The translations under genes were made by a program, and so were the position numbers. The notes beneath the pieces were generated by a model. It saw nothing but the letters and a program-made list of their open reading frames with translations, was not told where the DNA came from and ran no database searches. A stretch of DNA of 64,000 nucleotides. It comes from a virus. The stretch lies in IMG/VR virus record IMGVR_UViG_3300027747_002638; one strand, written 5' to 3'. This document shows, in pieces, positions 10,998-63,999 of this stretch (its first letter is position 1; every line of letters starts with the position of its first letter).

Positions 10998-11017
10998 TTA
11001 AGTCAAGATAATTAATC

Positions 11018-11046
11018 TTTACTTTTTATTATATATTTACTATAAT
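11018..11046 (+). promoter_or_regulatory. Sigma70-type promoter of the glycan island
   Basis: TTTACT-N17-TATAAT, 6 nt before GTG 11053. Confidence 0.7.
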
Positions 11047-11052
11047 ACATGA

Positions 11053-14533: not shown

Positions 14534-14536
14534 TAT

Positions 14537-18168: not shown

Positions 18169-18169
18169 T

Positions 18170-20160: not shown

Positions 20161-20170
20161 ATATTTATAA

Positions 20171-21710: not shown

Positions 21711-21713
21711 TTT

Positions 21714-23470: not shown

Positions 23471-23471
23471 T

Positions 23472-26088: not shown

Positions 26089-26115
26089 TCTAATTTGTAA
26101 TATAATAAGTATACA

Positions 26116-28333: not shown

Positions 28334-28354
28334 AATATATTATTTAGATATTAT
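28326..28354 (+). promoter_or_regulatory. Sigma70-type promoter
   Basis: TTGACT-N17-TATTAT, 6 nt before ATG 28361. Confidence 0.7.
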
Positions 28355-28360
28355 TACATA

Positions 28361-28699
28361 ATGATGAGTCATAAACTATGTCAATTAATTGTTAAAAAAT
28401 ATATTAAGGGACAAGTAAATTGGCCTAGAGAAATTAAAATAGCTCAAAAACTAGTAAAAAAGTTTAAATCATTCGAGTTTTGGGATAACCTTAAAGAGCT
28501 TGGAAGTCCACCTCCATCTTTAGCTTGGTTTTTAAAGAGCGAAGGTAAGGCTTTTCTTATCAAGGAATACGAAAGTTTTAATATGAATTTTGATAAAAAA
28601 GTAATAGATTTAAAACAAAATAAAATTTCAGAAGATAAAAACATTTGCCAAAAGCCTAAAACTCTGCTAGAATTTATAAGATATGGGAAGAAAACCTAA
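28361..28699 (+). CDS. Hypothetical protein
   Basis: 112-aa ORF heading the recA unit. Confidence 0.6.
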   Translation: MMSHKLCQLIVKKYIKGQVNWPREIKIAQKLVKKFKSFEFWDNLKELGSPPPSLAWFLKSEGKAFLIKEYESFNMNFDKKVIDLKQNKISEDKNICQKPKTLLEFIRYGKKT

Positions 28700-40887: not shown

Positions 40888-42807
40888 GTGAGAAGAAAAA
40901 AGGTTTTAATACAAACTGACTTTTCTTTGGCTAAGACTGGTTTTGGAAGAAATGCCAAAGCTATTTTAAAAGCTTTATATTCAAAAGATAAATATGATAT
41001 TGTACATTATTGCTGTGGACTAAACTGGAGTAATCCAGAAACTTTAAAAGTTCCTTGGAAATGCTTTGGATCTCTTCCTGACGATCAAAAACAATTAGAA
41101 CAATTAAATAAAGATCCTCTTGCTGCAAGAAACGCTAGTTATGGGGCGCTTCTTTTAGATAGAGTTATCGAACAAGAAAAACCAGATGTTTATATTGCTA
41201 TCCAAGATATTTGGGGAGTAGATTTTGCAATAGAAAAACCTTGGTTTGAGAAGATATCTTCTGTAATTTGGACGACTTTAGATTCTTTGCCAATTTTAGA
41301 ATCAGCAATTAAGTATGCTCCAAAAATTAAAAACTATTGGATATGGAGTAACTTCGCTACAAAGGCTTTACATAAATTGGGTTATAAACATGTAAAAACT
41401 TTGCATGGAGCATTAGAGGATTCATTCTTTTATAAATTATCAGATTTTGATAGAAGCCAATTAAGAAAAAGACATGGTATACCTCAAGATGCTTTTATTA
41501 TTGGCTTTGTATTTAGAAATCAATTAAGAAAAAGCGTTCCTAACCTTTTAGAAGGATATGCTCTTTGGAAAAAGCAAAATCCAAATATAAAAAATACATT
41601 CCTACTTTTGCATACTCATTGGGCAGAAGGGTGGAACATATATAAATTAGCAGATGAATATGGCGTACCAAAAAATGAAATTTTGACCACATACATTTGC
41701 AAAAATTGTCATAATTATGAAATCAAGCCTTTTCAAGGACATGATATAGACTGTAGATTGTGTGGAGCACAAAAGAGTCAAATTACAACTGGAGTTGGTC
41801 TTGGAATTAATGAAGTTCAACTTAATGAAGTATATAATTTAATGGATGTTTATTGTCATCCATTTACTAGCGGTGGACAAGAAATACCCATTCAAGAAGC
41901 TAAACTTACAGAATTAATCACTTTAGTTACTAATTACTCATGTGGAGAAGAAATGTGTGAGCCAGAAGCTTATTCATTACCTTTGGAATGGGCAGAGTAC
42001 AGAGAGCATGGCACAGAATTTAAAAAGGCTTCAACATTACCGACTTCTATCGCTCAACAATTAAACGCAGTTCATAAGATGCCAAAAGATAAAAAGATTT
42101 TAATGGGTAAAAACGCTAGAGAATGGACTATTAAAAACTTTGGCGTTACTTATGTAAGCAGTATTTTGGAAAAATTTATTGATGATCAACCGTACATAGA
42201 TCAAGATACTTTAACTATTACTCATCAAGAAAAAGATCCAAACTACATAGTTCCAGATATTAAAAACGATGCAGAATGGATAAAATTTTTATACGCAAAT
42301 ATCTTAAAACGTCCAGAAGTAGATGAAAGAGACGAAGGATTTAAATATTGGATGCAAGAAATTTCAAAAGGAATGAAAAGACCAGATATTGAAAACTACT
42401 TCAGAAACGTAGCTCTTCAAGAAAACTCAAAGACTAAGAAGTTTAATTTCGAAGATTTATTAGATCAAAAAGATAATAATAGCAAAATATTATTTGTAAT
42501 GCCTGAATCAGAAGTAGATTTATTTTTATCAACTTCCTTATTTAAATCTATAAAAGATACTTACCCAAATCATTCTCTATACGTTGCAACAAAATCAGAG
42601 TATCATGAAATTCTTGATGGCAATCCATACATTAAAAAAGTAATACAATATATTCCGCAAATGGATGACATCTTATGGCTAGAAGGAGTCTCAGATCATA
42701 ATGGTTATTTTGATATAGCTTTCTTACCATATGTAAATTCTCAAAGAATTGTGAATTTCTTGCACAATGGTAAAACTAAAATTAACTATTACTTAAAGGA
42801 CAAATAA
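40888..42807 (+). CDS. GT4 glycosyltransferase with Zn-ribbon insert, fused to a GT9-like N-terminal half
   Basis: TGFGR, FRNQLRK, CKNC...CRLC, GGQEIPIQEA; KILFVMPE...SIK.TYP...VATK...ILDGNPYIKKVI. Confidence 0.75.
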   Translation: MRRKKVLIQTDFSLAKTGFGRNAKAILKALYSKDKYDIVHYCCGLNWSNPETLKVPWKCFGSLPDDQKQLEQLNKDPLAARNASYGALLLDRVIEQEKPDVYIAIQDIWGVDFAIEKPWFEKISSVIWTTLDSLPILESAIKYAPKIKNYWIWSNFATKALHKLGYKHVKTLHGALEDSFFYKLSDFDRSQLRKRHGIPQDAFIIGFVFRNQLRKSVPNLLEGYALWKKQNPNIKNTFLLLHTHWAEGWNIYKLADEYGVPKNEILTTYICKNCHNYEIKPFQGHDIDCRLCGAQKSQITTGVGLGINEVQLNEVYNLMDVYCHPFTSGGQEIPIQEAKLTELITLVTNYSCGEEMCEPEAYSLPLEWAEYREHGTEFKKASTLPTSIAQQLNAVHKMPKDKKILMGKNAREWTIKNFGVTYVSSILEKFIDDQPYIDQDTLTITHQEKDPNYIVPDIKNDAEWIKFLYANILKRPEVDERDEGFKYWMQEISKGMKRPDIENYFRNVALQENSKTKKFNFEDLLDQKDNNSKILFVMPESEVDLFLSTSLFKSIKDTYPNHSLYVATKSEYHEILDGNPYIKKVIQYIPQMDDILWLEGVSDHNGYFDIAFLPYVNSQRIVNFLHNGKTKINYYLKDK

Positions 42808-47834: not shown

Positions 47835-48371
47835 ATGGCAAGCGTTTACGACACAGTATATGGTTGGGCTGTAGGTACTACTTATAGTAAGTACAATATT
47901 GTATCTGGATCTAATAGCAAATATTATTATTCTTTAATAGATAATAATCTTGGAAACAATCCAACTACAATTGCTTATTTACAATCTGGATGGGATGGTT
48001 ATAAATTATTTAATTCTAGTTATATACCAAACTTTTTCTGGCAACCATCTTATCAATCAAGTGCAAAAATTGAACCAAGAGTTAAAAAAATTCAATTTGG
48101 AAACGGATACCAACAAAGAATACCAGACGGTATAAATTTTGAACTTAAAAATTTAACTTTAACTTTTGAAAATAGATCAGAAACAGAAACAGTTTCAATT
48201 TTACATTTCTTAGAACAAAGAGGCGGACAACAATCTTTCGCTTATAATGTTCCAACTATTTATGCAAAACCTTCTGGAGTTAGTAAATTTATTGCACCCA
48301 ACTGGGAAACTAATTATAATTTTTACAACAATTATAGTATTAAAACAGTATTTGAAGAAGTCCCAAATTAA
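47835..48371 (+). CDS. Minor tail protein, lambda gpM-like (distal tail)
   Basis: F.W.PSY, PRVKKIQFGNGYQQRIPDGIN, FLEQRGGQQSF, FEEV. Confidence 0.88.
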   Translation: MASVYDTVYGWAVGTTYSKYNIVSGSNSKYYYSLIDNNLGNNPTTIAYLQSGWDGYKLFNSSYIPNFFWQPSYQSSAKIEPRVKKIQFGNGYQQRIPDGINFELKNLTLTFENRSETETVSILHFLEQRGGQQSFAYNVPTIYAKPSGVSKFIAPNWETNYNFYNNYSIKTVFEEVPN

Positions 48372-48377
48372 AATAAT

Positions 48378-49760
48378 ATGCCAACCTCTTTAGAAGTTTA
48401 CAATCAAATAGTAAGTGGATATAAATCCATAAATACAGAAACAAATAAATTAGAACCATCTGTACCAGTAGTTTTTTATGAAATAGATTTAACTCAAATT
48501 TATCCACAGATTAGAAATACCACTACGTTAACAAATCAACCATTACAAAACGGTATTTTAAGAATATATAATGATTACAATTTATACAATTTATCAAGCC
48601 AACCGTATGGTACAATAACTTGGAAAAATAATCAGTATTTTCCAATGCCTGTACATGCAGACGGATTTGAAATGAATAGTGCTGGAACTCTTCCAACTCC
48701 AAGAATTTTTATTGCAAATAGTAGTCCAGATACTTCAACAAATTCTTTTTATAAATATATAAGATTACAAATTCAATCTTTAGGAGATATTGTTGGCGCA
48801 AAATTTACAAGAATTAAAACTTTTTTAAAATATTTAAATGGTGTTAATTTTTCTGGAGGATTTAATCCATATACAGATGATCCATCTATATCTGAAATTG
48901 AGTTACCAAAAGACATTTACTATATTGATCGAAAATCTCAAGAAGATAATTTAATTTTAGAATATTCTTTAGGTTCTATTCTAGATGTTGAAGGAGTATT
49001 TTTACCTTCAAGAACAATTTTTTCTAATAAATGTCCATTTGAGTATAGAGGCGAAGGATGTTTGTATGAATATGATAGTAGAAGATCTATAGTCCATAGC
49101 GGAGTTTATGGAGGAATTGTCAACTCGAGTGGAGTTAATATAAGATTACTACAAACTGCACCACCAGTTGCAACAGAAAATGATCAGCTTTTCTTGGGAT
49201 CATCTGGTTCAGTTTTTGTTACTGGAGTTAATACTTATGCTGTAAATAGAATTACTGGCGGAGCTGGTGATTTAGGAGCATGGAATACTGGACAAAGTTA
49301 TACAAGTGGAGATTTTATATATTTACAAAATACAAGTAAATTAAATTATTATTTTGTATGTATTAATAATCATACGTCTTCTTTAGAAAATTCTCCACCA
49401 AATACAACATTTTGGTTAGCAGATTCTTGTTCTAAAAGTATTTCTTCATGCAGACTAAGATGGTTAAAAAATCCAGCTTTTAGACCTGTTATTTGGCCAA
49501 CGGATAGAGGTGGTTGGGATTTAAATTATTATAAATTAGCTGATAGAATGCTTAGAACAGCAATAGAAGCAACTAGTCAGTTAAGTCCACCAGCTTTTGT
49601 TGATACAGGTATAAATTCTCCATTTCCAAGAAGACCAGCATGTTGGAATCCAAACTCTGATATTTCGCATGGAATACCAAAAGATTATTTAGGAAATTAT
49701 TTAAATGGATTTCTTCCATTTGGAGGTTTTCCAGGAACAGATCAACCAAACAATCAATAA
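48378..49760 (+). CDS. Minor tail protein, lambda gpL-like
   Basis: GTLPTPRI, GAKFTRIKTFLKYL, CPFEYRGEGC, DSCSKSISSCRLR, LPFGGFPG. Confidence 0.88.
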   Translation: MPTSLEVYNQIVSGYKSINTETNKLEPSVPVVFYEIDLTQIYPQIRNTTTLTNQPLQNGILRIYNDYNLYNLSSQPYGTITWKNNQYFPMPVHADGFEMNSAGTLPTPRIFIANSSPDTSTNSFYKYIRLQIQSLGDIVGAKFTRIKTFLKYLNGVNFSGGFNPYTDDPSISEIELPKDIYYIDRKSQEDNLILEYSLGSILDVEGVFLPSRTIFSNKCPFEYRGEGCLYEYDSRRSIVHSGVYGGIVNSSGVNIRLLQTAPPVATENDQLFLGSSGSVFVTGVNTYAVNRITGGAGDLGAWNTGQSYTSGDFIYLQNTSKLNYYFVCINNHTSSLENSPPNTTFWLADSCSKSISSCRLRWLKNPAFRPVIWPTDRGGWDLNYYKLADRMLRTAIEATSQLSPPAFVDTGINSPFPRRPACWNPNSDISHGIPKDYLGNYLNGFLPFGGFPGTDQPNNQ

Positions 49761-50485
49761 TGAATACTAAAATTAAAAATAAAATAAGAAATCATGCGAT
49801 AGAAGAATCTCCGCAGGAATGTTGTGGTTTTGTTATTGAACATAATGGGATTATAGACGTTTTGAAATGTAAAAATATATCTAAAGACCCAATTAATAAT
49901 TTTAAAATATCTGCTCTAGAATTTTTAAAAATAAAAAATTCATACAATCCACTTTATATTTATCACAGTCATTTAGATGAAGAAAACTTCTCGATGATGG
50001 ATAAAAATTGCGCAGAAGAATCATCTATAGATTTAATACTTTATATATTAAAAAGCGATACTTTCAAGTATTACAGTTCTAATAATTCAGAAAGTTTAAA
50101 ATATATTGGAAGAAATATTAATTTTCAACAAACAAATTGTTTTGATTTAGTAAAATTATACTATAAAAATGAATTTAATGTAGATTTAAAATTTCCAGAA
50201 AATTTTATAAATGACCATATGCTAAAAGTAAATCAAGAAAATCTTGATCTAGTATTAGAATATGCAAAAATAAATAATCTAGAATTAGATTATACTGATG
50301 AATTCATAAACCACGATATATTACTATTTAATAGTGATGGTTATTTTCATTTAGCTATTTATTTAGGAAATGACAAGATTTTAGAACAACCTAGAAATGG
50401 GTTTTCAAAAATAACAAATTACTGTAATTACTATAAGAGAAATAAAATAGCTAGACTAAGGAGATCAAAAAATGGTAACAGTTAA
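49760..50485 (+). CDS. Tail tip assembly protein, lambda gpK-like (JAB + NlpC/P60)
   Basis: PQECCG, YHSH...FS..D; NCFDLV..YY, HLAIYLG. Confidence 0.85.
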   Translation: MNTKIKNKIRNHAIEESPQECCGFVIEHNGIIDVLKCKNISKDPINNFKISALEFLKIKNSYNPLYIYHSHLDEENFSMMDKNCAEESSIDLILYILKSDTFKYYSSNNSESLKYIGRNINFQQTNCFDLVKLYYKNEFNVDLKFPENFINDHMLKVNQENLDLVLEYAKINNLELDYTDEFINHDILLFNSDGYFHLAIYLGNDKILEQPRNGFSKITNYCNYYKRNKIARLRRSKNGNS

Positions 50486-51224
50486 TTTACACGGTAGATT
50501 AGGGGAAGAGATAGGAGAAACATGGCATTTAAATGTTACTTCTGTATCAGAAGCTATGAGAGCAATAGAAGCAAATACTAGAACTTTTAGAAAGTGGCTA
50601 CTAGATAACTCTAAAACAAAAGGTTATTCTTCATACGCAATACTTATAAACAATAAACCAGTAGAAATTAAAAATCAAGAAAATATAAATGAATTTAAAA
50701 ATTCAGAAGTATTTATGGAATATGGAGAAAAACTTCAAACAATAGATCTTATACCAGAAGTAATGGGATCTCGTAGCGCTATAATGTTTGTTGTTGCAAC
50801 AGTTTTAATTATTACAGCAATTTTTGTTCCACCATTAGCTCCAGTTTTAATATTAGGCGCAATTGGATTAATAGCTGCTGGTGTTACTAGTTTATTAAGT
50901 AAACCACCACCACTTATTCCATATAATGCGCAACAAGCAGATCCTATAAGCACTTCTGCAGGAGAAGTTGGAGGCCCAAGTTCTTATCTTTTTAATGGCC
51001 CAGTAAATACAGTTGGTGAAGGAGGACCAGTCCCAGTAGGATATGGTACTTTATTAATTGGATCAAATAATGTATTTGCATCTTATGATGTTCAATATAA
51101 AACATCTAGAAGAGGAATTACTGCTGCTGGAAATACAGTATCTTCTGGATCTTATACATATTTATTTGATTCTAATTGTAGATTAATGGGTCAAAAACCA
51201 ACAATAAACGAAATAAATTTCTAA
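50472..51224 (+). CDS. Tail assembly protein, lambda gpI-like
   Basis: VNLHGRLG, EAMRAI, hydrophobic segment, SYLFNGPVNT..EGGPVPVGYG. Confidence 0.88.
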   Translation: MVTVNLHGRLGEEIGETWHLNVTSVSEAMRAIEANTRTFRKWLLDNSKTKGYSSYAILINNKPVEIKNQENINEFKNSEVFMEYGEKLQTIDLIPEVMGSRSAIMFVVATVLIITAIFVPPLAPVLILGAIGLIAAGVTSLLSKPPPLIPYNAQQADPISTSAGEVGGPSSYLFNGPVNTVGEGGPVPVGYGTLLIGSNNVFASYDVQYKTSRRGITAAGNTVSSGSYTYLFDSNCRLMGQKPTINEINF

Positions 51225-51225
51225 T

Positions 51226-54200
51226 ATGGCAGGAGCAACAAATCTTAGCGCAGAAGGACTAGAATACCTTTGGTATCCAGGAACCATAGGATTAACTTTT
51301 GCTGGAATGACTTTCCCAGAAAGTGAATGCATAGATAGCGCTCCAGGAGTTAGTTCACTTAGTTTTAGTGGTTATGATCCTATGGGAGCTTTTGATTTTT
51401 ATTTTAATAATGGAATAAGTGGATATAAAACTTACTCTAGTCAAATTATGACATTTGATGGCTTAAGTAATCTTTGGCAATTTAATTCTGCTGTTGATTC
51501 TGTAGTAAATATTAGTTATCTTCGAGGTGCCCCAAATTTCAATAGCTTATATTCAATTGTTTATGGCGGAAGCGCTTTTGATCCAGTAAATTACGGTAAA
51601 ACTACTTTAATAAGTGGTACGACTGGAAATGTTGCAATAACTAGCATAAATAAAATAGGAGTATTAGATTTAATTTGCGAAGGGCCAATAGAAGGTTTTG
51701 TAACAGGAACTTATTTTTATAGTTATTCTGGAAAAAATACTGGAGATATTGGATATACTTCATATTCTTTTATTCCATTTAATAGTTCTGGTTTTTATGG
51801 CGGATCAGAAGATGGAAATCAATATCTTGAAACTCCACCAGAATCTCGTTCAATTTTTTGGAATGATATTCCAATTGTTCAAAAGAATGGAGCGTATAAT
51901 TTTAAATCAGTAAACTATAAATATACTATAGGTGATCCTAATTTGCATACTCAAATGAGTCCCACAATAAATTTATTTGAAGATAGATATAGCTATTTTG
52001 GAAATCAAATAGATAAATTTAAATATCCTCTTGTAACTTCAAGAACAAAATCAATAAATGAAAGACTTTTTGGATCAATTATAACTACTGGTATTACTGA
52101 CGTTGGATTTCCTAAATCTTATAATGTATATAATACAGATGTTTCTGCTATAAAATTAAATTTTAAAATTAATGGATTAAGTGAAACGATTGTTTCAGTT
52201 GGATCTGGAAATCAAGGGGATGTTTATAAACAAACTCTTAAAATTAATTTTTTGTTATTTAGACTTTTTAGAGATGGTAGTACCGCATTAATAGATGCTT
52301 CTCAATTTTATCCATATAAAAGTCAATATTATTTTAACCATAGTATTTTACTTAGAGGAAAAGTAAGCAGCCCAATGTTAAGTTCTTATCAATATTGTTT
52401 TCGACCATTTGCAGAAAATTTTCCAGCTTTTCAAATCATGCAAAATCAAATTGGATGGTCGGTTACAGTAACTAAAATAACTCAAGAAGGTTTACCTCCA
52501 GGAGTGACAAACTCTTGTTCAGTTGATAGCATAACAGAAATTTATAGTGATAGATTTGTTTATCCTAATGTTGCAATGGTTTACAATGAATTTGATGCTA
52601 GATATTTTAATAGCGTTCCAACAAGAAGTTATAAAATGAGACTTTTAAAAGTTAAAATCCCAAATAATTATGATCCAATTACAAGAAGTTATAACGGTTA
52701 TTGGGATGGTACATTTAAATTAGCATGGACAGATAATCCTGCCTGGTGTTATTATGATTTAATTACCAATAATAGATATGGGTTAGGTAAGTATATTGAT
52801 TCATCCTTAGTTGATAAATGGAATCTTTATGAAATTGCACAATACTGCGATCAATTAGTTCCAGATGGTAATGGTGGTTTAGAACCAAGATTTACTTGTA
52901 ATTTAATGATTTCAGCAAAAGATGAAGCTTATAAAGTTTTGAATGATATGGCTTCAATATTTCGAGGGATAACTTATTATTCTGCTGGATTAGTTTTTGC
53001 AAATCAAGATAGACCCAAAAATATTATTTATTCATTTAATAACGCAAATGTTGTAGATGGTAAATTTACATATTCAGATAGTTCAAGAAGAGTTAGAAAA
53101 ACCGTAGCAACTATTAGATACAACAATGAAGATGATAATTATAAACCAGCAATAGAATATGTAGAATATAGACCTGGAATATTAAAATATGGAATAAGAG
53201 AAATTGCAGTTACTGCATTTGGTTGTACAAGCAAAAACCAAGCAAGAAGATTAGGAAAATGGTATTTGATTACAGAAAATTTAGAAACGGAAACAGTAGT
53301 TTTTGATGCAGGATTAGATGCTGGATATCTTATTCCAGGAGATTTAGTTCAAATTTATGATCAAAATAGAAAAAATGTAAATTTTGCTGGAAGAACGAAA
53401 GAATTATCTACAGGATCTGCGACTCTTGATTTACCATATAATACTGGAATATTAAATAATTTAACTGGATTTAAGAGTAATTTTGATATTTTCTTCTTAA
53501 CTCCTACTTACAATTTAAATTACGGAACAGACCTAGGTAATGATTATATAACTGGTTACAATATAACCTCAAGCGGTGCGACAGGATTAAACTCGGATTT
53601 CTTTAGAAGAAGCGCTGTTCAAAAAATGACTATACCATTACCAACTCAAAACTATATAACAAGAGGAACTGGAGTTTATTCAGACAATATTAGAATAATA
53701 TTTCCTTCTGGTTTGAACGGATCAGGATATAGTTTATTGGAAAATGCTGTATGGAATATAGATGTAAATACTAGTGGATATACTGGCATAGATATTATAT
53801 CGCCAATAAATAATCCTTCTAGTTTAACATATCCAGGCGCATTATATGATGGATATTTAAATGAACCACAAATTTATAGAATTTTAAATATAAAAGAAGA
53901 TCCAGAAAATAAAACATATAATGTATCAGCTATGCAATATGTACCAGCAAAATATGGAGAAATAGATTTAGACGCGCAATTAATAAATGTACCTAATAAA
54001 CCTTTACTTCCTGGCGCTCCAAATGTAATTTTAAGCGGTTTATATAGAGATGCAGCTGGTAATTTAACAGGATCAAATAGATTATTGTATCAAGGAGTTC
54101 AAACTGCGATTGGAATTAATAGCGTAGCTTATTCTATATCTCCATCTACAAATGGTTCTTATATTAGTCAATATTTAATTTATATGAGAACAGGTACAGC

Positions 54201-54471
54201 TTTTACTAGTTTAACAAATGATCAAACAGACCTAATAGATATACAACCAGCCAATGTTAATACTGGATTTTATCCAACTGATCTTATTAATGGAAGAGAG
54301 TTAGGATTATATCCTCCATATTTTACTCCTCAATATTCTGGAACTTTTTACTTTAAAATTTATGCACAAAATTCATTAAACGAAGCATCAAGTCCAACAT
54401 TAGGCTCTTTCACTTTAACGAGTCAAGCTCCTTTAGATAGAGTTCAGGCTTCTGGAGTTAACATATTATGA
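51226..54471 (+). CDS. Tail tip/host-specificity protein, lambda gpJ-like
   Basis: DLICEGPIEG, WDGTFK.AWTDNPAW..YDL..NRYGLG, YCDQLV..G.GG.EPRF, AFGCTS..QARRLGKW. Confidence 0.9.
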   Translation: MAGATNLSAEGLEYLWYPGTIGLTFAGMTFPESECIDSAPGVSSLSFSGYDPMGAFDFYFNNGISGYKTYSSQIMTFDGLSNLWQFNSAVDSVVNISYLRGAPNFNSLYSIVYGGSAFDPVNYGKTTLISGTTGNVAITSINKIGVLDLICEGPIEGFVTGTYFYSYSGKNTGDIGYTSYSFIPFNSSGFYGGSEDGNQYLETPPESRSIFWNDIPIVQKNGAYNFKSVNYKYTIGDPNLHTQMSPTINLFEDRYSYFGNQIDKFKYPLVTSRTKSINERLFGSIITTGITDVGFPKSYNVYNTDVSAIKLNFKINGLSETIVSVGSGNQGDVYKQTLKINFLLFRLFRDGSTALIDASQFYPYKSQYYFNHSILLRGKVSSPMLSSYQYCFRPFAENFPAFQIMQNQIGWSVTVTKITQEGLPPGVTNSCSVDSITEIYSDRFVYPNVAMVYNEFDARYFNSVPTRSYKMRLLKVKIPNNYDPITRSYNGYWDGTFKLAWTDNPAWCYYDLITNNRYGLGKYIDSSLVDKWNLYEIAQYCDQLVPDGNGGLEPRFTCNLMISAKDEAYKVLNDMASIFRGITYYSAGLVFANQDRPKNIIYSFNNANVVDGKFTYSDSSRRVRKTVATIRYNNEDDNYKPAIEYVEYRPGILKYGIREIAVTAFGCTSKNQARRLGKWYLITENLETETVVFDAGLDAGYLIPGDLVQIYDQNRKNVNFAGRTKELSTGSATLDLPYNTGILNNLTGFKSNFDIFFLTPTYNLNYGTDLGNDYITGYNITSSGATGLNSDFFRRSAVQKMTIPLPTQNYITRGTGVYSDNIRIIFPSGLNGSGYSLLENAVWNIDVNTSGYTGIDIISPINNPSSLTYPGALYDGYLNEPQIYRILNIKEDPENKTYNVSAMQYVPAKYGEIDLDAQLINVPNKPLLPGAPNVILSGLYRDAAGNLTGSNRLLYQGVQTAIGINSVAYSISPSTNGSYISQYLIYMRTGTAFTSLTNDQTDLIDIQPANVNTGFYPTDLINGRELGLYPPYFTPQYSGTFYFKIYAQNSLNEASSPTLGSFTLTSQAPLDRVQASGVNIL

Positions 54472-55904
54472 AGCTTTTAGCTAAAAATTTAAATTTAAAA
54501 TTAACTTGGGAATTATCATCAGCTCTTCCAGCATTATATGCTAATAAATTAATACCAACTAAATATTTTCCAAATTTTAATGTAGATATTTATGATAAAG
54601 AAAATAATCTTTTACAAAGTTTTAAAAATATTGATTCAAAAAAAGAAATAGAAAAATATATTGTACCAAACGAAATTTTATATCCATCCAAAGAATCCAT
54701 AGAAGGCACAAGAATTCAGAAAGATCTTCAATCAGAGAAAAATATTCAAAAAGTTTTAGAAAATTATTTTGAATATCCTTTCCTTTCTAATTATAAAAAA
54801 TATAAACAAATAAAAAATAAAATAGGATTTTTTGATAATTTAAAATTTGATATTACTTTTAATTCAAAAGAACCATCTTATTTAAATTTTGAAGTCGAAT
54901 ATCCAAAACTTAATACTTTAAAAATAGATTCTATTTTTAATAAAATTTACAGAAGTAATGATTATTATTCAATTAAATTTTTAATAAATACAGAAAATTG
55001 GAATGAAAGCCAAGCCTATTCATTATTAATATTCCCTTCTTATAAGGATACGAAATTAAATAAAATTTTAATAGAAAATGTAAGTAGTTTATGGCTTAAT
55101 TCAATAGATGAATTAAAACTATTAACCGTTCCATTTGTTGAAACTGGATTAGTTGAAAATTTGAACTCTTTAGATCTTAAAATATATGTTTTAAATAAAA
55201 TTCAATTAGACTTATATAAATTCCTTGGTGATTTTGAATTTCCAGAAGATATAGAAAACTTTTTTTCAAGTACTTATTCTGACCAAATTATAAATGTTTC
55301 TTTGGACCAAAATAATAATAAAAATGGATTCTTTCAAGGAAGTTTATATTCATTTAATGATGAAAATTTTAATGCATTATCTTGGCCTAAAAATGAACTA
55401 TTAATTAATAATTTAAACTATAAAAATTACTTTCCAATTTCTAATTATAACAGTAAAGATACTATTTTAATAGAAGAGCAAGCAATTATTAACAATGTAT
55501 TATCTATATTCAATTCTCAAGATATGGAATCAAATCAAATAGGATTATATTATAATAATATATATGAGTCCTGTGCTCAAGATATACCATTCTTTAATTT
55601 TTTAAATTTAAATAGCCTAGAAATCGTTGAAGTCAGAAACTTAAATGGTAATATTCAGATATTTTTAGAAGCAACAACTAATATAGAAAATATAGAAAAC
55701 ATATATATAGAAAGTTCTTCTAATTTAATATTACAAAATAAATACTTAAAAAATATAAATGGTAAAGCTTATACGGCTATATTATTTTTATACGAATATT
55801 CAAAATTAGAAGTAATAAATAAATCTTTACAAGATAACTTACAAGTAGATCAAATAATTTATAAAAAAGTGCCAATTAGTTTTTCTTGGAAAATTATAAA
55901 TTAA
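54468..55904 (+). CDS. Hypothetical Asn/Ile-rich protein downstream of gpJ
   Basis: 478-aa ORF, ATGA-coupled to gpJ. Confidence 0.6.
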   Translation: MKLLAKNLNLKLTWELSSALPALYANKLIPTKYFPNFNVDIYDKENNLLQSFKNIDSKKEIEKYIVPNEILYPSKESIEGTRIQKDLQSEKNIQKVLENYFEYPFLSNYKKYKQIKNKIGFFDNLKFDITFNSKEPSYLNFEVEYPKLNTLKIDSIFNKIYRSNDYYSIKFLINTENWNESQAYSLLIFPSYKDTKLNKILIENVSSLWLNSIDELKLLTVPFVETGLVENLNSLDLKIYVLNKIQLDLYKFLGDFEFPEDIENFFSSTYSDQIINVSLDQNNNKNGFFQGSLYSFNDENFNALSWPKNELLINNLNYKNYFPISNYNSKDTILIEEQAIINNVLSIFNSQDMESNQIGLYYNNIYESCAQDIPFFNFLNLNSLEIVEVRNLNGNIQIFLEATTNIENIENIYIESSSNLILQNKYLKNINGKAYTAILFLYEYSKLEVINKSLQDNLQVDQIIYKKVPISFSWKIIN

Positions 55905-58900
55905 TTTTTCATTGTATACTTGCTACTACTTAACATTCCGCCTGGTCTTTGCTCGGTATTTAGAACTTTAATAACTTCAGATTTAATTCTATCTGATAAT
56001 TTTCTATTTTTCTCTAATTCATCTCTTCGGTCTTGATCAGTTGTAATTTTATCGTTTGATTGACTATTTGCGGTACTAGTTTCAACAGATGAACTCTTAT
56101 CTATATTTACTGTTATATTAATATTATTAGTATTTGATACAGAAGATTGAGTTTCTGATTGATTTAATCCTGCATTTTGATTTCCTACCGATCCTCCATC
56201 TGCAAATTTATTTATTCTTCCAGAATTTAATGAATCAAAAAATCCTTTACCATACCTATTAACCGTATCTTTATTAACGACATATTCTCCATCCATTAAT
56301 AATGCTGGCACATTATCTTTATATGGAGAACCACCTTTAGCATACCCTTTTCTAATAGTTGGAACAGTTCCTCTTAATCCATAATTATTTGCTTGAACTG
56401 GTGGGCCGAATTTCATGCTTCCAGCAGAATAATCTCCACCTCTCCAATTTGCCCATCCTTTGTTAGATGTTCCTCCAAAAGCTTCTGATAAAACTTGTTT
56501 AATCGCTGGAACACCATATTGACTAAGTGCACCACCACCCACAGTCATTCCTGCTTGTAATAATGAACCCCAGAATAAATTATTTTGTTGTTTATTATAA
56601 GCGTCTCTATTTTGTTTATTTAATTGATCTACCCTAGCTTTTTCTTGTCGATTTCTTTCTGCAAGATCTGCAAGATATTGATCATAATTAGAAACTTCAT
56701 TTTGAAATGTTAATAATCTTTGAACTTTTTCATTTCTTAATTGATTCATTGGATTATTTTCATCTAATATTGCTTGAGGAGATAATCTTGGATCAAAGAA
56801 ATATGATCCTTCTGTTGGTAATCCATATTTAGTTGCACCAGTAGTATAAAAATCATTTAATAAATCTGAAGAAAATGCTCCGCCAGTATCTGTTCTTTGA
56901 GATGAAACATCTGAACCAACCGATGTCATAGCTATTGGCCAATTATTTACTTTTATCCATTCGTTAGGATCTCCTATTTTTGATCCTACTCCAAACCCTC
57001 CTCCGTCAGCTTTTTTAACTGTTCTTCCACTATTTAAACTATCTAAGAAATCTTTTCCATATTTTTCTACAGCAGCTTTTTTAACTACATATTCTCCTTT
57101 ACTTAAATATGCTGGAATATCATCTCTTACTCCTGATCCACCAGTAACATGTCCACCAATTGCATATCCTTTAATAAAACCACCATTTTTTCTTCCTAAT
57201 GGGCTTTTTAATAGATCACTAATTCCACCTACAGAGCTAAATACGCTATTAAATATAAGATTAGTTGACATTTCTAATGCTAACTGTTGAATTCTTCTTG
57301 ATATATTTAAAGCCATTGTAGTAAATGCATCACCTACTGTTTGCGTTCCTTCTATAACAGACTGAAATGCATTATTAAATTCTGATTTAATAGTTCTTGC
57401 TGTATCAGAAGCTGTATTATTTAAATCTCTCATTACATCTTGAGTTCCATATGCAAATTCATCTTGGAAACTTTGTAATGTATCCATTGGTGTATAATCA
57501 CCACCTCGGATTGCTTTTTCTCTTGCGGCTGCTCTAGCTTGTTTAAATTCATCGCTAAAAGCTGTACCTTCTCTAAATTTAGCTTCTGCTATTAAACTTT
57601 CTACGGTTGCTTCTATTGCAAAATTTAATTTTGTGATATTATCACCTAAAGTTTTTGTTAATTCTGCTTCTTTTTCTTTATATGTATTTAAAGCTTCTTG
57701 TCTTAATGATGTATCAGATATAGAAGAACTCATCGCTATTAAACTTTTTTGTGTCATAGCGGCAGAAGTATTTATATCATTAATTGTTGTTTGTAATTGT
57801 ACAAAAGCCTCATCTGTAAGTTTACCACCATTAGCTACAACGGACGCGCTTGTTTCTTTTAAAGCCTCACCTAATTGTTTTGTATATTTTAATCTTTTCT
57901 CTTCGTCAACTGTACCGCCGAAAACTCCAGCCATACCTTGACTGAAGGCGCCACCTACTACTGCATTAGGTCTAAATTGCTTACCAGTTGTTTGTAAGAA
58001 GTCTTCTACTAAACTACCAAAATCTGCTTGTTGTAAAAGTTTATTTCCAGTATCCCTTACGTTATTATCTTTGTTAAATAAATCAATTAATCTATCTTCT
58101 AATTGTAAAAGATTAAATGCTGTTTTTAATCTTCTCTTTTCTGCAACCGCTAAAGCATCAGATGCATTTGCTAAATTTTTATATATTTTTTCTAATTCTG
58201 CACCCTTTGTTCCAATATCTAATGAAGATTTTAAAACATTTGTTATCTGATCTTTTAAATCTTTTCCAGTTTGAGGTAAAATTTCTCCAGAAGAAATTAA
58301 ATTATCTATAAAAGAACTTAAATTTTTACTAAAATTATCAATCGCAGTTTGACTTCTGGATTCTACTATATTACTTATAGCTCTATTTCTTCGTACTTCA
58401 AATGGTTGAGCGCGTCCAGTTGATATTCTTGCTATTTCTTTTTTAAGTTCTTCATCTGATATTGCTAATTTAGAAGCTGGACCTTTTGCTGTAAGTGTTG
58501 CAGATGAATTTCTTGCATCGTCTAGAGCTGATTTACTATTAATTAAAATTTCAGTTAATTTGTCAAAACTTGACATTACATCTTTATTTTTTGCAATTAA
58601 AGCTCCGAGTGATTCACCACTTCTAGTAGTCAAAACATTAAATTGTTTAAATACTTCACTAAATTTTTCTGCACTTTTAATATTTTCTGGTTTTAAAGTA
58701 TTTACGGAATCAATAAATTCTCTAATCTGTTTAGTAGAAGTTAATGCTGAAGATGCTTTTCCTAGGGCTTTTTGTAATTCATTCTCTGATCCACTTGCAA
58801 TAGCATCTACAATAGATTTTCCAATATCTGAATCTGAACTAGCGATTATTCTACTTAAAGCCTCATCTCTTGCTTTTGATGCAGCTTCAAGATTACCTTT

Positions 58901-61900
58901 TGATTCTCCAGTTCTAATTCCTCTTGCTGTTTCTCTATTTGTTAAGAATGCTTGTACGTCTTCAGAAAATCTTGCTAAATTAGATGTAGCTTGTTCAGTT
59001 AATTTTCGGTACTCTTCTGTTTTGTCTTTTAACTGCGCAAAAGCTTTAGTAAGCCCTATTGTTAACCCTATTAGACCTCCTACGGCTGCTCCATATTGGC
59101 CAAATATTGCTCCTGTTCCAGCGAAAGTTGCTGTATCGCTTGCTACTGTTGCTCCAAATCTTACCGCTTTATTTTCTGGTGCAAATTGCTCCGCTGTTTG
59201 AGCAACGATTGGAACAGCAATACTAGCCAATAATCCTGCATTTTGTAATCTACCTGCCGCTGCAGTTCTTCTTTGAGTTACTCTATCTAATGTCCCTCTG
59301 GCTGCTTCTCCATATCTTCCTTCTTGACTAGCTAATCTTTCTAATCTTGCTCGAGCTTTTCCTCCTCCAAAGACTCCAAATGCTCCAGCTGCTTCTTTTT
59401 CTAACCCAGATAAATACGTAGCAAATCTTTCGCTAGATGTTGAAACTCTTGTAAATAAACTTTTTACTTTTTGGGTACTTTGAGCTGTTAATTGATATGA
59501 TTGAGCAATTATTCCAGCTTCTTTTTCTGCTGTAGCGAGATCAATTTCTTGAGCTTTTAATCTCTTAGAAATTTTAGCTAAATCCTTAGCAACCTCACTA
59601 GATAATATATTAATATCTTTTACAGACATTCCAGCGACCGCTGTTTGCTCAAATTGAATGTTTTGTCCTGCAAAATTAGGTACAAATCCAAAAGCTGCTC
59701 CAGCTTTTCTTGCAGAAGATATTGATGAATATCTTGAAATTCCTTGATTTAATCCTTGTGGTTCATCTTGAGTATTATAAACTCCTAAACCTAATGGATT
59801 ACTTGACGCCATTAATTTGCCACTTTGACCGACTCTAATCTTTGAGTTTGGTACACCAGCTGAAATTTCTCTAGATACAGCCTGTTCTAGTGCTGAAAAA
59901 TTAGGTATAAATCCTGAAGCTGCTGTTCTTGGCTTTGGCAATAAAGGCCTAGTAGTAGCATCTCTATATGCTTTATCAATTATCTCTCTAGCTTGTTCAG
60001 CTGTTATTGTTCTTTTTGCGTCCGCTCTTAAAACTGGTGGAGAAAATCCAAATTTACTATTAAATGCATTTGTAGGTGGACTTGATTCTTCAAAATCAAA
60101 AGGTTTTTGAGCTGTATTTTGGTCAAAAGCTTTTTGTAAAGCTCCTCCGCGTTTTGTGCCTAAATTTACAGCTGCTTCAAAAATTGATCCCTCAGTTCCT
60201 GCTGGGAAAAGATTAACTCCAGCTTTTCTATTATTAGATGCAAGTAAAGATTTAAATTTTGGATCTGGACTTAATGGGCCAAAAATATCATTTGCAAGTT
60301 GAGCAAGTGGATCAACAAATAATTTATTAATTGCTGTAGAAAAAGAATTTTTATCTTGAATTTCGCTATTTTTTAAATCTTCAAGAGTTCTAGCTTGTAT
60401 TCCTTCAAATTTTACAGATCTTGGATCTTTTGTATAGCCTAATGTACTAAATGCAGTTTGAGCATCTATAGATCCTCTTCTTCCACCAACTCCAACTATT
60501 CCAAACTCACTCGCAGGTACAACAACTACTTCGCCTTGGCTAGTTTTTGCTCCAGACATTTTACCACTTTTAATTGCATCAATTTCTTTTTGAACTTCTG
60601 GAGTTATTTTATAACCTCTAGATTTTATAAAAGCATCTATATTTTGTCCCTTAGCTTCAGTAAATAAACTTTGTGCAATTTGTAAACTATTTTTAGCAAA
60701 ATTAGGTATAAATCCACTACTAGCATATGGATTAAATCCATGAATAGAAGAGAATTGATTTTGGTAATTTTTTCCAGCTTTGCTTTGTGATGGAGGCATA
60801 ATTGCTGGTTGAGATAATCCTGGAAATTTTTTAACAGTTTCTGCTGAATTATAAACAGTTTTTCCTACGCCAGAGATATTCATTTCTTTTATTTTTCCTG
60901 GTTTGTATCCACCAGATAATGCACCAGAAATTTCTGACATAGCATATGATGGTATAAATCCAGAGTTTGCCGTGGTAACTTGTCCACCTTTTACAGAAAC
61001 TCCTCTTCTTACTAATCCACCTGTGATAGTAGATGATAAACTAGAAGCTTGTGCTCTTATGGCGTTTTGTTCTTTTAATATTTGTAATATTTTATTTTCT
61101 ACGCTCAAAACTCCAATTTGTTTGCTTGCAATTGCTGCTAATAAAGTTGGTTCCTGGGTTAAGACTTGATTAATTTTATTTTGTAATTGTAATCTGCTGT
61201 CTGCTGCTTGATTTATTCCTAATAAAGTTTTAACAGAAGCTGCTGCGAATTGTCCTAAGTTTAGCAATAATTTTCCTAGAACTGCTGTAATTAAAACTAC
61301 TCCTGGTCCAGAGATGAAAGAAGAAATTCCATTCAATATTCCTTGTCCAATTTTAGATCCAACACTCTCAGTATCTTGATTGTTAATCATCTCTAAAAGA
61401 CCATTAACATTTTTTAGTGTTCCTTCTATCGCTGGTTGAAATGCTCCTGCTCCAACAGTTGCGCCTAATTGAGCTACATTATTTATAGTTCTATTAAATA
61501 AAGCGGCTAATGTTTCATTTAATGCTTGATTTCTTTTAAGAGCCTGATCTGTTGCAGATGTAGCGGTATTTAAAGCATTTTGATAAATTGAATATTCTTT
61601 ACCTAAATCTCCCAATGCTGCTTTCAAAATATTTATTTGGAAAACTCCACCAACAGTTTCTGCTACTTGAGATTTTTGTGCATCAGATAAAGTATCAAAT
61701 GTTGTACTTAATTGTTTTAAAATTTGTATTGCTGGTAAAGTATTACCTTCTAAATCTCTTACTCCAATTCCTAAAGCTTGTAATTGAGATAATACTTCTG
61801 GTCTTTCTATTCTCGTAAAGATAGTTTTAAGTGAATTACCTATTACAGCTCCACCTCTAGCAGTAGTTTGTTGAACGCTTGTAACGACAGCTAATAATTC

Positions 61901-62578
61901 ATCAAATCCAACTCCTGCGTCTTGAGCAGAAGTTCCTACTCGTTTGATGGCTTCAGCCAAATCAGCAGAACTAACTGCGAAAGATGAGTCAACATTAGCT
62001 AATTTATTAACAATAGTTGTAGAATCTAGCGCTGTTTTATTAAAACTGTTTATTGTAGCCGTTAAAGCTTCAACGCTACTAATGGTATCTAATCCACTTA
62101 ATCTAGTAAGAATAAGAGCATCTCTTGTTCTTTTTAAAGTCTCTTCTACTCCTAAACCTTGACGAGCTAATTCTGTAGCTGCTGCAGCTACTTCATTAAA
62201 CCCTTGTCCAGTGCTTTTAGCTATATCAAATAAATCGGCTCCAAATTTAGCTAGACCGCTAGTTGTTGTATTTAAAATAACATTAATATCAGTTAATGAT
62301 TTTTGTACATTAACTGTAGTTTTAATTAATTCTACAAAAGCTTTTTCTACAGTATATATTAATCCTGCACTAGCGCCGAATGCAATAACACGAGCATTTG
62401 ATGCATCTAATGATTTTTGGAATTCATTTGCTGCACCAGTGATTCTACCAAGAGGTTGAGTAAAGGCCTTTTCATTCAATCCTTTGAATTTAAAATCTCT
62501 CGATAAGGCGCTCTGAATATCTCTTTCGAGTTGCCTTGTATCTGCACCTACTGAAATTGTAGCGGAAGTCCTAGCCAT
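55901..62578 (-). CDS. Tape measure protein (TP901-type N-region) with extra internal modules
   Basis: ELARQGL, LANVDSSFAVSSADLAEAI, TARGGAVIGNSLKTIFTRI; Ala/Gly helical and TM-like segments; GG...GEYVV motifs. Confidence 0.9.
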   Translation of the reverse strand: MARTSATISVGADTRQLERDIQSALSRDFKFKGLNEKAFTQPLGRITGAANEFQKSLDASNARVIAFGASAGLIYTVEKAFVELIKTTVNVQKSLTDINVILNTTTSGLAKFGADLFDIAKSTGQGFNEVAAAATELARQGLGVEETLKRTRDALILTRLSGLDTISSVEALTATINSFNKTALDSTTIVNKLANVDSSFAVSSADLAEAIKRVGTSAQDAGVGFDELLAVVTSVQQTTARGGAVIGNSLKTIFTRIERPEVLSQLQALGIGVRDLEGNTLPAIQILKQLSTTFDTLSDAQKSQVAETVGGVFQINILKAALGDLGKEYSIYQNALNTATSATDQALKRNQALNETLAALFNRTINNVAQLGATVGAGAFQPAIEGTLKNVNGLLEMINNQDTESVGSKIGQGILNGISSFISGPGVVLITAVLGKLLLNLGQFAAASVKTLLGINQAADSRLQLQNKINQVLTQEPTLLAAIASKQIGVLSVENKILQILKEQNAIRAQASSLSSTITGGLVRRGVSVKGGQVTTANSGFIPSYAMSEISGALSGGYKPGKIKEMNISGVGKTVYNSAETVKKFPGLSQPAIMPPSQSKAGKNYQNQFSSIHGFNPYASSGFIPNFAKNSLQIAQSLFTEAKGQNIDAFIKSRGYKITPEVQKEIDAIKSGKMSGAKTSQGEVVVVPASEFGIVGVGGRRGSIDAQTAFSTLGYTKDPRSVKFEGIQARTLEDLKNSEIQDKNSFSTAINKLFVDPLAQLANDIFGPLSPDPKFKSLLASNNRKAGVNLFPAGTEGSIFEAAVNLGTKRGGALQKAFDQNTAQKPFDFEESSPPTNAFNSKFGFSPPVLRADAKRTITAEQAREIIDKAYRDATTRPLLPKPRTAASGFIPNFSALEQAVSREISAGVPNSKIRVGQSGKLMASSNPLGLGVYNTQDEPQGLNQGISRYSSISSARKAGAAFGFVPNFAGQNIQFEQTAVAGMSVKDINILSSEVAKDLAKISKRLKAQEIDLATAEKEAGIIAQSYQLTAQSTQKVKSLFTRVSTSSERFATYLSGLEKEAAGAFGVFGGGKARARLERLASQEGRYGEAARGTLDRVTQRRTAAAGRLQNAGLLASIAVPIVAQTAEQFAPENKAVRFGATVASDTATFAGTGAIFGQYGAAVGGLIGLTIGLTKAFAQLKDKTEEYRKLTEQATSNLARFSEDVQAFLTNRETARGIRTGESKGNLEAASKARDEALSRIIASSDSDIGKSIVDAIASGSENELQKALGKASSALTSTKQIREFIDSVNTLKPENIKSAEKFSEVFKQFNVLTTRSGESLGALIAKNKDVMSSFDKLTEILINSKSALDDARNSSATLTAKGPASKLAISDEELKKEIARISTGRAQPFEVRRNRAISNIVESRSQTAIDNFSKNLSSFIDNLISSGEILPQTGKDLKDQITNVLKSSLDIGTKGAELEKIYKNLANASDALAVAEKRRLKTAFNLLQLEDRLIDLFNKDNNVRDTGNKLLQQADFGSLVEDFLQTTGKQFRPNAVVGGAFSQGMAGVFGGTVDEEKRLKYTKQLGEALKETSASVVANGGKLTDEAFVQLQTTINDINTSAAMTQKSLIAMSSSISDTSLRQEALNTYKEKEAELTKTLGDNITKLNFAIEATVESLIAEAKFREGTAFSDEFKQARAAAREKAIRGGDYTPMDTLQSFQDEFAYGTQDVMRDLNNTASDTARTIKSEFNNAFQSVIEGTQTVGDAFTTMALNISRRIQQLALEMSTNLIFNSVFSSVGGISDLLKSPLGRKNGGFIKGYAIGGHVTGGSGVRDDIPAYLSKGEYVVKKAAVEKYGKDFLDSLNSGRTVKKADGGGFGVGSKIGDPNEWIKVNNWPIAMTSVGSDVSSQRTDTGGAFSSDLLNDFYTTGATKYGLPTEGSYFFDPRLSPQAILDENNPMNQLRNEKVQRLLTFQNEVSNYDQYLADLAERNRQEKARVDQLNKQNRDAYNKQQNNLFWGSLLQAGMTVGGGALSQYGVPAIKQVLSEAFGGTSNKGWANWRGGDYSAGSMKFGPPVQANNYGLRGTVPTIRKGYAKGGSPYKDNVPALLMDGEYVVNKDTVNRYGKGFFDSLNSGRINKFADGGSVGNQNAGLNQSETQSSVSNTNNINITVNIDKSSSVETSTANSQSNDKITTDQDRRDELEKNRKLSDRIKSEVIKVLNTEQRPGGMLSSSKYTMKN
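59668..60973 (-). repeat. Four copies of peptide repeat A-x-(S/F)-G-F-(I/V)-P-(N/S)-(F/Y) in the tape measure protein
   Basis: TANSGFIPSYA (~60941-60973), YASSGFIPNFA (~60695-60727), TAASGFIPNFS (~59894-59926), AAFGFVPNFA (~59668-59697). Confidence 0.8.
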
Positions 62579-62630: not shown

Positions 62631-63629
62631 TTATATCCCATGTAATTTCATTAAATCTTGCATACTTAAATTTCCACCACGTTTCTTAGCCTCTTCTATT
62701 AAACTTATTCCACCTTCTTGCTTTACCCCTGCTTTTTCAAGGTCTTCTTTTGAAGCGCCAACGATTGATGTGGCCATTACTCCATCGTTTTTAGATACAT
62801 TTTTAGATGTTTTATCTAATAATTCTTCTATATTTTTAGCACTTTCCAACCATTCAATTAGCTTATCTGGATCTTCAAAATATTCATCTGGTGGTTTATT
62901 CTTAGCATTTTCAAGTTGATTTTTGAAATATCTTGCATATCCATATATATCAATTTGATATAAAGTTAAATATATTACTGGCTTACCAAATAAATTATAA
63001 ATATTATCTCCACCTAAATTAAATAAACTTAAGAAAGTAGGAGAAAGGGCTATTTTTCGTAAATTTAATTCAGAAAAATTATCAGTTACTATATTATATA
63101 TACCGATAATATCAGAAATATCTGTATTTTCTAAATCTTCAAATTCTTCATTGGAAAAAAAGCTTCCATTTAAGTCTTTATCTTTAAATAAAGATATAAA
63201 CATGCAATATTCATTTATTTTTTTATTAGCATAGTCTTCTGCGGTAAATCCAATTAGATCTTTCTTTTCAGCTTTTAATTTTAATAAATTTAATTCATTT
63301 TGATTTATTTGATTATTTATATTTTTTAAATCTTCGTTTTTGAACATTTTAGACTTGTTCTTTTTTAGAGTTTTAATATATGTCGTTATAGACTGTATTT
63401 CTTTATTACGGTCTTCAGACCATAAATTTTCTTTTAATATATACTTTTCTTGCTCTTCTAACGAGGGAAGTTTTTGATTAATTGCTTTTTGGTAGATTTC
63501 TTCTTTTTTTAAGTTTATATTACCGATGCTTAAGTTATCAAAATGTTTTATATAAACTGGTTGTTTTTTATAATACGCTTTTGAATAACCATTTAAAATA
63601 TCTGTTAATGTATTTGTATTCTTAAGCAC
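62631..63629 (-). CDS. Probable tail assembly chaperone-region protein
   Basis: 332-aa helical ORF immediately upstream of tape measure gene. Confidence 0.5.
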   Translation of the reverse strand: MLKNTNTLTDILNGYSKAYYKKQPVYIKHFDNLSIGNINLKKEEIYQKAINQKLPSLEEQEKYILKENLWSEDRNKEIQSITTYIKTLKKNKSKMFKNEDLKNINNQINQNELNLLKLKAEKKDLIGFTAEDYANKKINEYCMFISLFKDKDLNGSFFSNEEFEDLENTDISDIIGIYNIVTDNFSELNLRKIALSPTFLSLFNLGGDNIYNLFGKPVIYLTLYQIDIYGYARYFKNQLENAKNKPPDEYFEDPDKLIEWLESAKNIEELLDKTSKNVSKNDGVMATSIVGASKEDLEKAGVKQEGGISLIEEAKKRGGNLSMQDLMKLHGI

Positions 63630-63999
63630 CGTTTTCTTTATTTTCTATTTCAAATAGTTTTTCAAATTCTTCTACAGTAGAGGCTCTTCCCATATACCAA
63701 AAACTAACAAAAAGAACTAATTTTTTAATTAATTTTTCAAAAAAACTATCAGTCATTTCTTCTAATTTGTCATATACCATAATTCTATCTTCAAAAGATC
63801 CTTCTCCGAATATAGGAACTAGATTTCCATTTTCGTCTTCTTGATGACTCAAATTCAATACCCACCACATGATAGTCTTATTTCTAGCTCTATTTTCTGC
63901 TGTTTGATCAAATAAACTAGCTTGTGCAAATTCATAATCTTGAATTTTTTCTCTTATTTCGGTAATTTGTTTTATTAAAACTTTGTATTCAGCATTTTC
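63622..63999 (-). CDS. Probable tail assembly chaperone, 5' truncated by window
   Basis: Frame stays open to the window edge (ENAEYKVLIKQITEIREKIQDYEFAQASLFDQTAENRARNKTIMWW...). Confidence 0.55.
   Translation of the reverse strand, partial: ENAEYKVLIKQITEIREKIQDYEFAQASLFDQTAENRARNKTIMWWVLNLSHQEDENGNLVPIFGEGSFEDRIMVYDKLEEMTDSFFEKLIKKLVLFVSFWYMGRASTVEEFEKLFEIENKENGA

Follow-up and report, generated by a model that had tools for sequence, protein, structure and literature searches.

A tape measure protein with a peptide-fenced modular insert and an exchangeable central domain in an uncultured large siphophage

Tape measure proteins (TMPs) leave the phage tail ahead of the DNA, as is established for TMPs in general, for example those of T5 and lambda. 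The TMP of mycobacteriophage TM4 reportedly carries a peptidoglycan-hydrolase motif, Mt3. In bacterial polymorphic toxins, short peptides (VENN in CdiA and PxxxxDPxGL in Rhs) border the toxin cassettes. Here we analyse the TMP gene on a 64,000-nucleotide (nt) stretch of viral DNA (IMG/VR record IMGVR_UViG_3300027747_002638, hereafter the window), whose product contains a non-coiled-coil, modular insert. An initial annotation, made from the DNA letters alone, had read this region as a swappable cassette delimited by repeats and carrying a PD-(D/E)xK nuclease-like cargo. Two further described systems are relevant. The T5 TMP, pb2, is cut at FVPR/A, after R1127, which separates an enzymatic (muralytic) C-terminal piece that stays in the virion (Linares et al., PMC10038345), and polyvalent proteins are known from conjugative elements as well as from phages (Iyer et al. 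2017, PMC5512222; TMPs are not mentioned there).

Like TM4 and T5 pb2, the window TMP combines its ruler function with non-coiled-coil modules that are expected to exit the tail with it. Unlike them, it has no muralytic or other known domain detectable with Pfam, PHROG or NCBIfam, its modules lie in the N-proximal third rather than C-terminally, and it possesses a repeated fencing peptide together with cassette exchange, both undescribed for those TMPs. As in CdiA and Rhs, a short peptide borders a hypervariable module that is exchanged between otherwise near-identical backbones; in Rhs, the border peptide doubles as a cleavage site. The carrier is here a virion tail protein, however, the variable module is internal and fenced on both sides, and the alternatives are divergent versions of one domain; no immunity gene is evident, though no candidate for one was examined. 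With polyvalent proteins the window TMP shares the design of a giant polypeptide of several modules that are presumed to accompany the DNA into the host and to be released from one another by processing. Those proteins are head-packaged or delivered by conjugation and bring their own MPTase peptidase, whereas no peptidase or known effector domain was found with Pfam in the window TMP or in six larger relatives, and separation of its modules, should it occur, would depend on the linker motif. A literature search for the motif strings returned a single unrelated proteomics paper and none on phages, and in the literature on TMPs with nuclease or modular domains we found no description of a fenced-module architecture.

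Fenced modules and exchange of the central cassette

The gene is a single open reading frame (ORF) of 2225 aa (Table 1). Its product, of 240 kDa, matches PF10145 (PhageMin_Tail) at aa 120-311 (E 7e-31), TIGR01760 in NCBIfam (E 4e-35) and many PHROG tape-measure families, in agreement with the initial annotation of the carrier as a TMP. Four copies of the motif G-F-[IV]-P-[NS]-[FY] were found where that annotation had placed them, dividing the region into three modules of 76, 261 and 69 aa. The window has a G+C content of only ~28% and is codon-biased, which might suggest that the repeats arose by chance or from composition in an AT-rich genome. This is hardly conceivable and can be considered refuted: ~0.0003 copies are expected in the TMP (0.0002 per shuffle, 0.0004 analytically) against the four observed, the motif is conserved across hundreds of relatives, and six-frame translations of the window together with 50 related loci (~0.9 Mb) contained it solely within TMP ORFs.

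In 94 relatives, 242 copies of the motif were collected, with the consensus A-[AS]-x-G-[FY]-[IV]-P-N-[FY]-A preceded by residues rich in G, K, A and P. The G and P positions were fixed by the search pattern itself. The N position and the flanking A-A/A were left free; N was nevertheless present in 227 of the 242 copies, and the flanking residues were nearly fixed too, over deep divergence. Distant members contained degenerate forms such as GMIPNF, GLVPNF and GHIPKYA. At the DNA level, 246 copies in IMG/VR loci were written in 125 different 18-mers and every synonymous codon was used, from which it follows that selection acts on the peptide. Within the window TMP, copies 2 and 3 share the identical 18-nt sequence GGATTTATACCTAATTTT, and copy 4 differs from it by one base. 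An AlphaFold2 model of aa 532-977 (446 aa, 39-sequence alignment) placed all four copies in coil with a predicted local distance difference test (pLDDT) score below 50, between better-predicted parts, which bears out the earlier proposal that the motif delimits folded modules. The motif is thus a TMP-specific short linear peptide in flexible linkers that fence independently folding modules. Beyond motif copy 4, similarity drops in most comparisons (P0003, P0004, P0120-P0122; P-numbers denote proteins, P0001 being the window TMP, and L-numbers IMG/VR loci). Between the first motif and the first small module, L027 and L034 carry two or three tandem repeats of a short unit (IPNFNAVRGYG...), so that the motif region, too, can grow.

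The cassette idea is strongly supported. A search with small module 1 (aa 536-630) returned 382 TMPs. Among the 115 new TMPs listed, 60 had no match to the hidden Markov model of the central domain found in the window (type A), and most of these kept the same motif spacing. Five further sequence types, B0-B4, can be distinguished among their central segments. Profile comparison by hhalign linked type A weakly to B0-B3 (78-89% probability over ~80 columns around the signature described below). All six types retain GxxFE / hDh / [DE]xK, with ADAK, ADFK, GDFK, GEVK or YEAK at the third site, and the signature is kept in 176 of 200 inter-motif segments of at least 120 aa. At 70-78% identity of the flanks, the central module is ~80% identical in P0003 and at most 25% identical in P0111, P0120, P0121, P0122, P0139 and P0148, while small module 1 remains 67-96% identical among relatives with differing central modules. 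In pairwise alignments, identity runs through ...SGFIPNFA, then collapses and resumes at GFIPNFSAL...; the repeat-delimited region is therefore far from invariant among homologues.

Some TMP pairs differ in central type although their first ~620 aa are 97-99% identical, so that a border peptide stands, in the manner of polymorphic toxins, at a module that differs between near-identical backbones. For example, P0149 (type A) and P0148 (type B4) share 98-100% identity as far as ASEGFIPNF and show no relationship between the motifs; from GFIPNFTALD onwards, across module 3 and a further ~100 aa, identity is back at 88-100%, with a mosaic beyond. At the DNA level, three of the four junctions in the locus pairs L072/L063 and L081/L076 lie within the motif codons and the fourth lies ~60 nt upstream. 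A tree of 120 TMPs, based on their N-terminal 620 aa, shows 25 or more changes of central type, as against a possible minimum of 5 and ~50 with shuffled labels; this tree was built with FastTree only, which counts against the result. Exchange of the central module with junctions at motifs 2 and 3 agrees with the initial annotation, which had viewed the repeats as processing or recombination points.

The same annotation had also envisaged different cargo between the repeats. This did not hold for the central slot, which is occupied by divergent versions of one domain, but it did hold for larger relatives, which contain extra units. P0152 and L064 possess an additional 155-aa module with its own motif, and P0062, P0065 and the TMPs of L040, L042 and L044 reach ~4000-4800 aa, with 8-12 motifs in addition to further modules of no recognised kind. 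Because full helicity would imply tails far longer than usual, much of the length of these proteins is probably cargo rather than ruler. Six larger relatives matched only PF10145 in Pfam. By eye, P-loop or kinase domains could be suspected in extra modules of P0062 (aa 1647-1969), P0059 (920-1135) and P0093 (1150-1345), which contain GPSGSGKT, similar to Walker A, and glycine loops of kinase type (GSGAE...VKK, DLHGSN); neither Pfam nor PDB sequence searches supported such domains.

Conserved residues and predicted structure of the central domain

When 1.84 billion representatives were scanned in full by HMMER with aa 628-888, 93 clusters (at 50% identity) were detected, 50 of them at E <=1e-10. 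The long matches are ~2000-aa TMP-like proteins in which the match occupies the same relative position; the others are short or N-terminally truncated pieces, several with the motif. The central domain thus appears, from these sequences, to be restricted to TMPs. GSIFEAAV, PFDF and ADAKR, the three strings to which the initial annotation had drawn attention, are all present, and their acidic and basic residues proved invariant or nearly so over the 93 relatives and the six divergent types: G797, E801 and D828 in 93/93, F800 in 90/93, D853 in 89/92 (with E in two more), K855 in 91/91 and, further downstream, K869 in 90/90.

AlphaFold2 produced a confident alpha/beta model of the core (aa 683-888, 51 sequences; pLDDT 87.6, predicted TM-score (pTM) 0.79), so the segment is not all-helical. 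The model begins with four strands and also has a 24-residue helix; GxxFE lies on a helix, and DAK lies on a strand that leads into a helix carrying K869. The central domain therefore displays an invariant enzyme-type constellation of GxxFE (helix), hD, (D/E)xK (strand) and a downstream K. All central types are basic, with a median net charge of +12 to +19. The best Z value in the fold search was unusually low, which suggests an elongated module; such a shape would suit a protein seated in the tail tube.

The core of PD-(D/E)xK nucleases has the topology alpha-beta-beta-beta-alpha-beta, with the D at the start of beta2 and (D/E)xK on beta3. The central domain resembles Mrr and Hjc of this superfamily in how E, D and (D/E)xK are ordered and spaced, in the interchange of D and E, in the position of E on a helix and in the predicted placement of (D/E)xK on a strand that leads into a helix. 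The ordered residues occur in all six types, with 16-48 residues from E to D and 14-26 from D to (D/E)xK. As judged from the alignments, this nuclease-like residue pattern is real and strongly conserved. The residues picked in the initial annotation are borne out, whereas the fold that it had proposed was not recovered: no profile or fold match was obtained, and the predicted sheet is, unlike that of Mrr and Hjc, formed from the N-terminal strands.

The searches behind this statement were negative throughout. Foldseek found nothing at E <=0.001 for the central domain in PDB or BFVD, VIA-align gave no nuclease or other fold match, and the ESM Atlas returned no usable match for the core. No family in Pfam, PHROGs, NCBIfam or PADLOC matched aa 532-977 or 536-970; Pfam searches with 51 aligned members produced only scattered single matches (E 0.019 or worse), and PDB sequence searches with protein and profile gave none at E up to 10. 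Profile-to-profile comparison with the superfamily covered one reference family, Mrr: hhalign of each central type with an alignment of 95 Mrr C-terminal domains reached at most 2%, which is weak negative evidence because the reference set is narrow (77-100% identical).

Function of the central domain and role of the motif

As a whole, the explanation that we favour, and consider fairly probable, is a modular TMP insert fenced by the motif, with an exchangeable central domain, a motif that serves for processing or as a hinge, and action at the time of entry. The modules would be carried in the tail lumen and, together with the TMP, exit before the DNA. At genome entry, the central domain would most probably bind or cut a phosphodiester substrate with the aid of metal ions; alternatively, its conserved site may be a ligand-binding site. 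Cassette exchange may have diversified its surface, with host factors or TMP-directed defence such as SNIPE as a conceivable source of selection. The motif peptide appears to be under selection as a functional site, likeliest for maturation cleavage like that of T5 FVPR/A or as a hinge, and cleavage there would set the modules free within the tail lumen. Conservation of the motif could also make its coding sequence a stretch of in-frame microhomology at the module borders, where modules would recombine.

A true PD-(D/E)xK nuclease, injected as an effector that cuts host or competitor DNA, would explain the order, spacing and third-site D/E interchange, classic for the superfamily and present in all six types, as well as E on a helix, DxK on a strand followed by a helix with a conserved K, and the strongly basic character of every type. 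We nevertheless regard it as doubtful, given the empty searches of Pfam, NCBIfam, PADLOC, PHROGs, PDB sequences, Foldseek PDB/BFVD and VIA-align, the Mrr comparison, and the fact that the domain was never met outside TMPs. The model also lacks beta1 and beta2 after the E helix and makes up its sheet from the four N-terminal strands. Some points tell against the explanation favoured above as well: D828 lies in low-confidence coil and not at a strand start, the stretch from the GxxFE helix to the DxK strand is devoid of strands, and type B4 is unlinked to type A (hhalign 1%). A non-enzymatic module for host interaction or entry specificity, contacting for example an inner-membrane entry factor or the DNA end, with types swapped to match hosts or to escape TMP-targeting defences or superinfection exclusion, is possible but likewise rather unlikely. 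In its favour, near-identical phages switch types discontinuously, as an arms race would lead one to expect; the domain is confined to TMPs, and its fold is unmatched and may be elongated; and SNIPE, a host defence nuclease, targets TMPs directly (bioRxiv 10.1101/2025.11.03.685801). Against it, E, D, D/E, K and K are strictly kept across types that are otherwise at most 25% identical, and such invariance of charged residues fits a catalytic or ligand site better than it does a variable protein-protein interface.

As for the motif, the main question is whether it is cut. The motif might never be cleaved, being instead a structural hinge or a peptide that docks to the tail tube lumen, the assembly chaperone or a neighbouring module, with junctions located there only since linkers tolerate recombination. 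This is a substantial possibility, if short of an even chance: mosaic junctions in phages are common at domain boundaries, the motif is disordered in the monomer model, the resemblance to T5 is short, and Pfam detected no peptidase domain in the window TMP (PF10145 only). It sits less well with the near-fixation of N and of the flanking A-A/A at positions that were free to vary, combined with varying synonymous codons, which together indicate a specific recognition event beyond mere flexibility. It also sits less well with the T5 record, in which the cut site reads NSFVPR/AEGG and holds the only F[IV]P of the 1219-aa pb2. When a position-specific scoring matrix (PSSM) of the N-terminal half of the motif was run on pb2, the cut site ranked top (5.8 against -1.2 for the next). 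Cleavage at the motif is, on this comparison, plausible, though less likely than not. Two results speak against it: 11 of 300 shuffles of pb2 reach the score of the cut site, the similarity covering ~4 residues, and lambda gpH has no [FYW][IVL]P anywhere. The cut site of the lambda TMP, and how TMP cleavage is catalysed, have been stated to be unknown (2025 structural paper, PMC12617516). Going further, the motif could be the recognition or cut site of the TMP maturation protease acting in the same event as at T5 FVPR/A, and TMPs of this family would then be polyproteins cut in the tail that shoot a swappable nuclease-like enzyme, plus others in the 4000-5000-aa relatives, into the host ahead of the genome; we judge this extended version unlikely.

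The best non-canonical PSSM site of the window TMP, GGFIKGYA, lies just before the first of the C-terminal GEYVV modules, which is where the cut is made in T5. This module (...D[DN][IV]PA.L..GEYVV...YG..F.DSLNSGR) is present in two copies (aa 1796-1860 and 2075-2135; window 56174-57193, minus strand) and is matched by PHROG TMP families as well. The canonical motif does not generally precede GEYVV modules: the strict form was found in 1 of 290 and a loose G[FY]IxG[FY] in 42 of 290.

Further features, genomic setting and significance

The two outer modules contain VYNSAE (aa 575) and VYNTQDE (aa 933), the strings that the initial annotation had described as shared VYN(S/T)xxE-like motifs. With the flanking motifs removed, their profile similarity is not significant (hhalign probability 8%), and common motifs of the outer modules are therefore only weakly supported. 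Neither small module is detectably a copy of the C-terminal GEYVV module or of the T5 pb2C region (hhalign at most 4%), and module 3 obtained only scores of 0.83 or less in the ESM Atlas. Coordinates of all features are given in Table 1.

Table 1. Features of the TMP gene and its modular insert (positions in the window)
Feature	Residues (aa)	Coordinates	Strand	Basis
TMP gene (P0001)	2225 aa in total	55901..62578	-	ORF; PF10145; TIGR01760; PHROG families
Motif copy 1, GFIPSY	540-545	60944..60961	-	pLDDT <50, coil in the 446-aa model
Small module 1, with VYNSAE	546-621	60716..60943	-	helix and short strands weakly predicted, pLDDT 56-65
Motif copy 2, GFIPNF	622-627	60698..60715	-	left cassette junction
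Central exchangeable module, type A	628-888	59915..60697	-	93 representative relatives; cassette exchange
Core alpha/beta domain	683-888	59915..60532	-	conservation; AlphaFold2 pLDDT 87.6, pTM 0.79
GSIFEAAV, GxxFE on predicted helix	797-804	60167..60190	-	sequence, conservation, model
PFDF, invariant D828 in predicted coil	826-829	60092..60103	-	sequence, conservation, model
ADAKR, (D/E)xK on predicted strand	852-856	60011..60025	-	sequence, conservation, model
Motif copy 3, GFIPNF	889-894	59897..59914	-	right cassette junction
Small module 3, with NPLGLGVYNTQDEP	895-963	59690..59896	-	pLDDT 66-80
Motif copy 4, GFVPNF	964-969	59672..59689	-	similarity drops beyond it in most comparisons
Degenerate motif-like GGFIKGYA	1799-1806	57161..57184	-	fifth-best PSSM site in TMP, score 4.5

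In most siphophages, the tail-tip genes come after the TMP gene on the same strand. Here, the very long TMP ORF adjoins lambda-like M, L, K, I and J homologues (47835-54471) that lie on the opposite strand and converge on it; a gpK-like JAB/NlpC-P60 protein is encoded at 49760-50485. Together with a 478-aa ORF, the tip genes form a plus-strand block (47835-55904) that meets the TMP gene head-on, and the 478-aa ORF overlaps the TMP gene by 4 nt. Upstream of the TMP gene, where tail assembly chaperones are expected, the ORFs 62631-63629 and 63622-63999 (both minus strand) have no Pfam, PHROG or PADLOC match; the former, at 332 aa, is large for a chaperone. Genes for a DNA polymerase, a DnaB-like helicase and sugar-nucleotide enzymes lie elsewhere in the window. 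A long plus-strand gene run (~10000-30000) includes UDP-glucose dehydrogenase, a nucleotide-sugar epimerase and a methyltransferase-like protein, and beyond it lies a glycosyltransferase-like protein (40888-42807), which together make a sugar-modification block that is large for a phage.

The exact window TMP occurs on contigs of up to 174 kb, and the organism is therefore a large uncultured siphophage. Its whole TMP matches cultured phages in the N-terminal core only, and tblastn with aa 532-977 against 50,697 GenBank phage records gave zero matches. The family is nonetheless large (382 proteins by the module 1 search; 93 clusters at 50% identity) and is represented in metagenomes only.

For TMP processing, a conserved and multiplied linker peptide that resembles the mapped T5 site provides a concrete, testable determinant. 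Structure determination and enzymology would find a clean target in the central domain, whose acidic and basic residues are invariant and which lacks structural neighbours. Finally, a cassette inside the virion protein that enters first would be a new route to vary what phages deliver or what hosts see, and such variation may be relevant to defence because SNIPE-type systems act on the TMP (10.1101/2025.11.03.685801).

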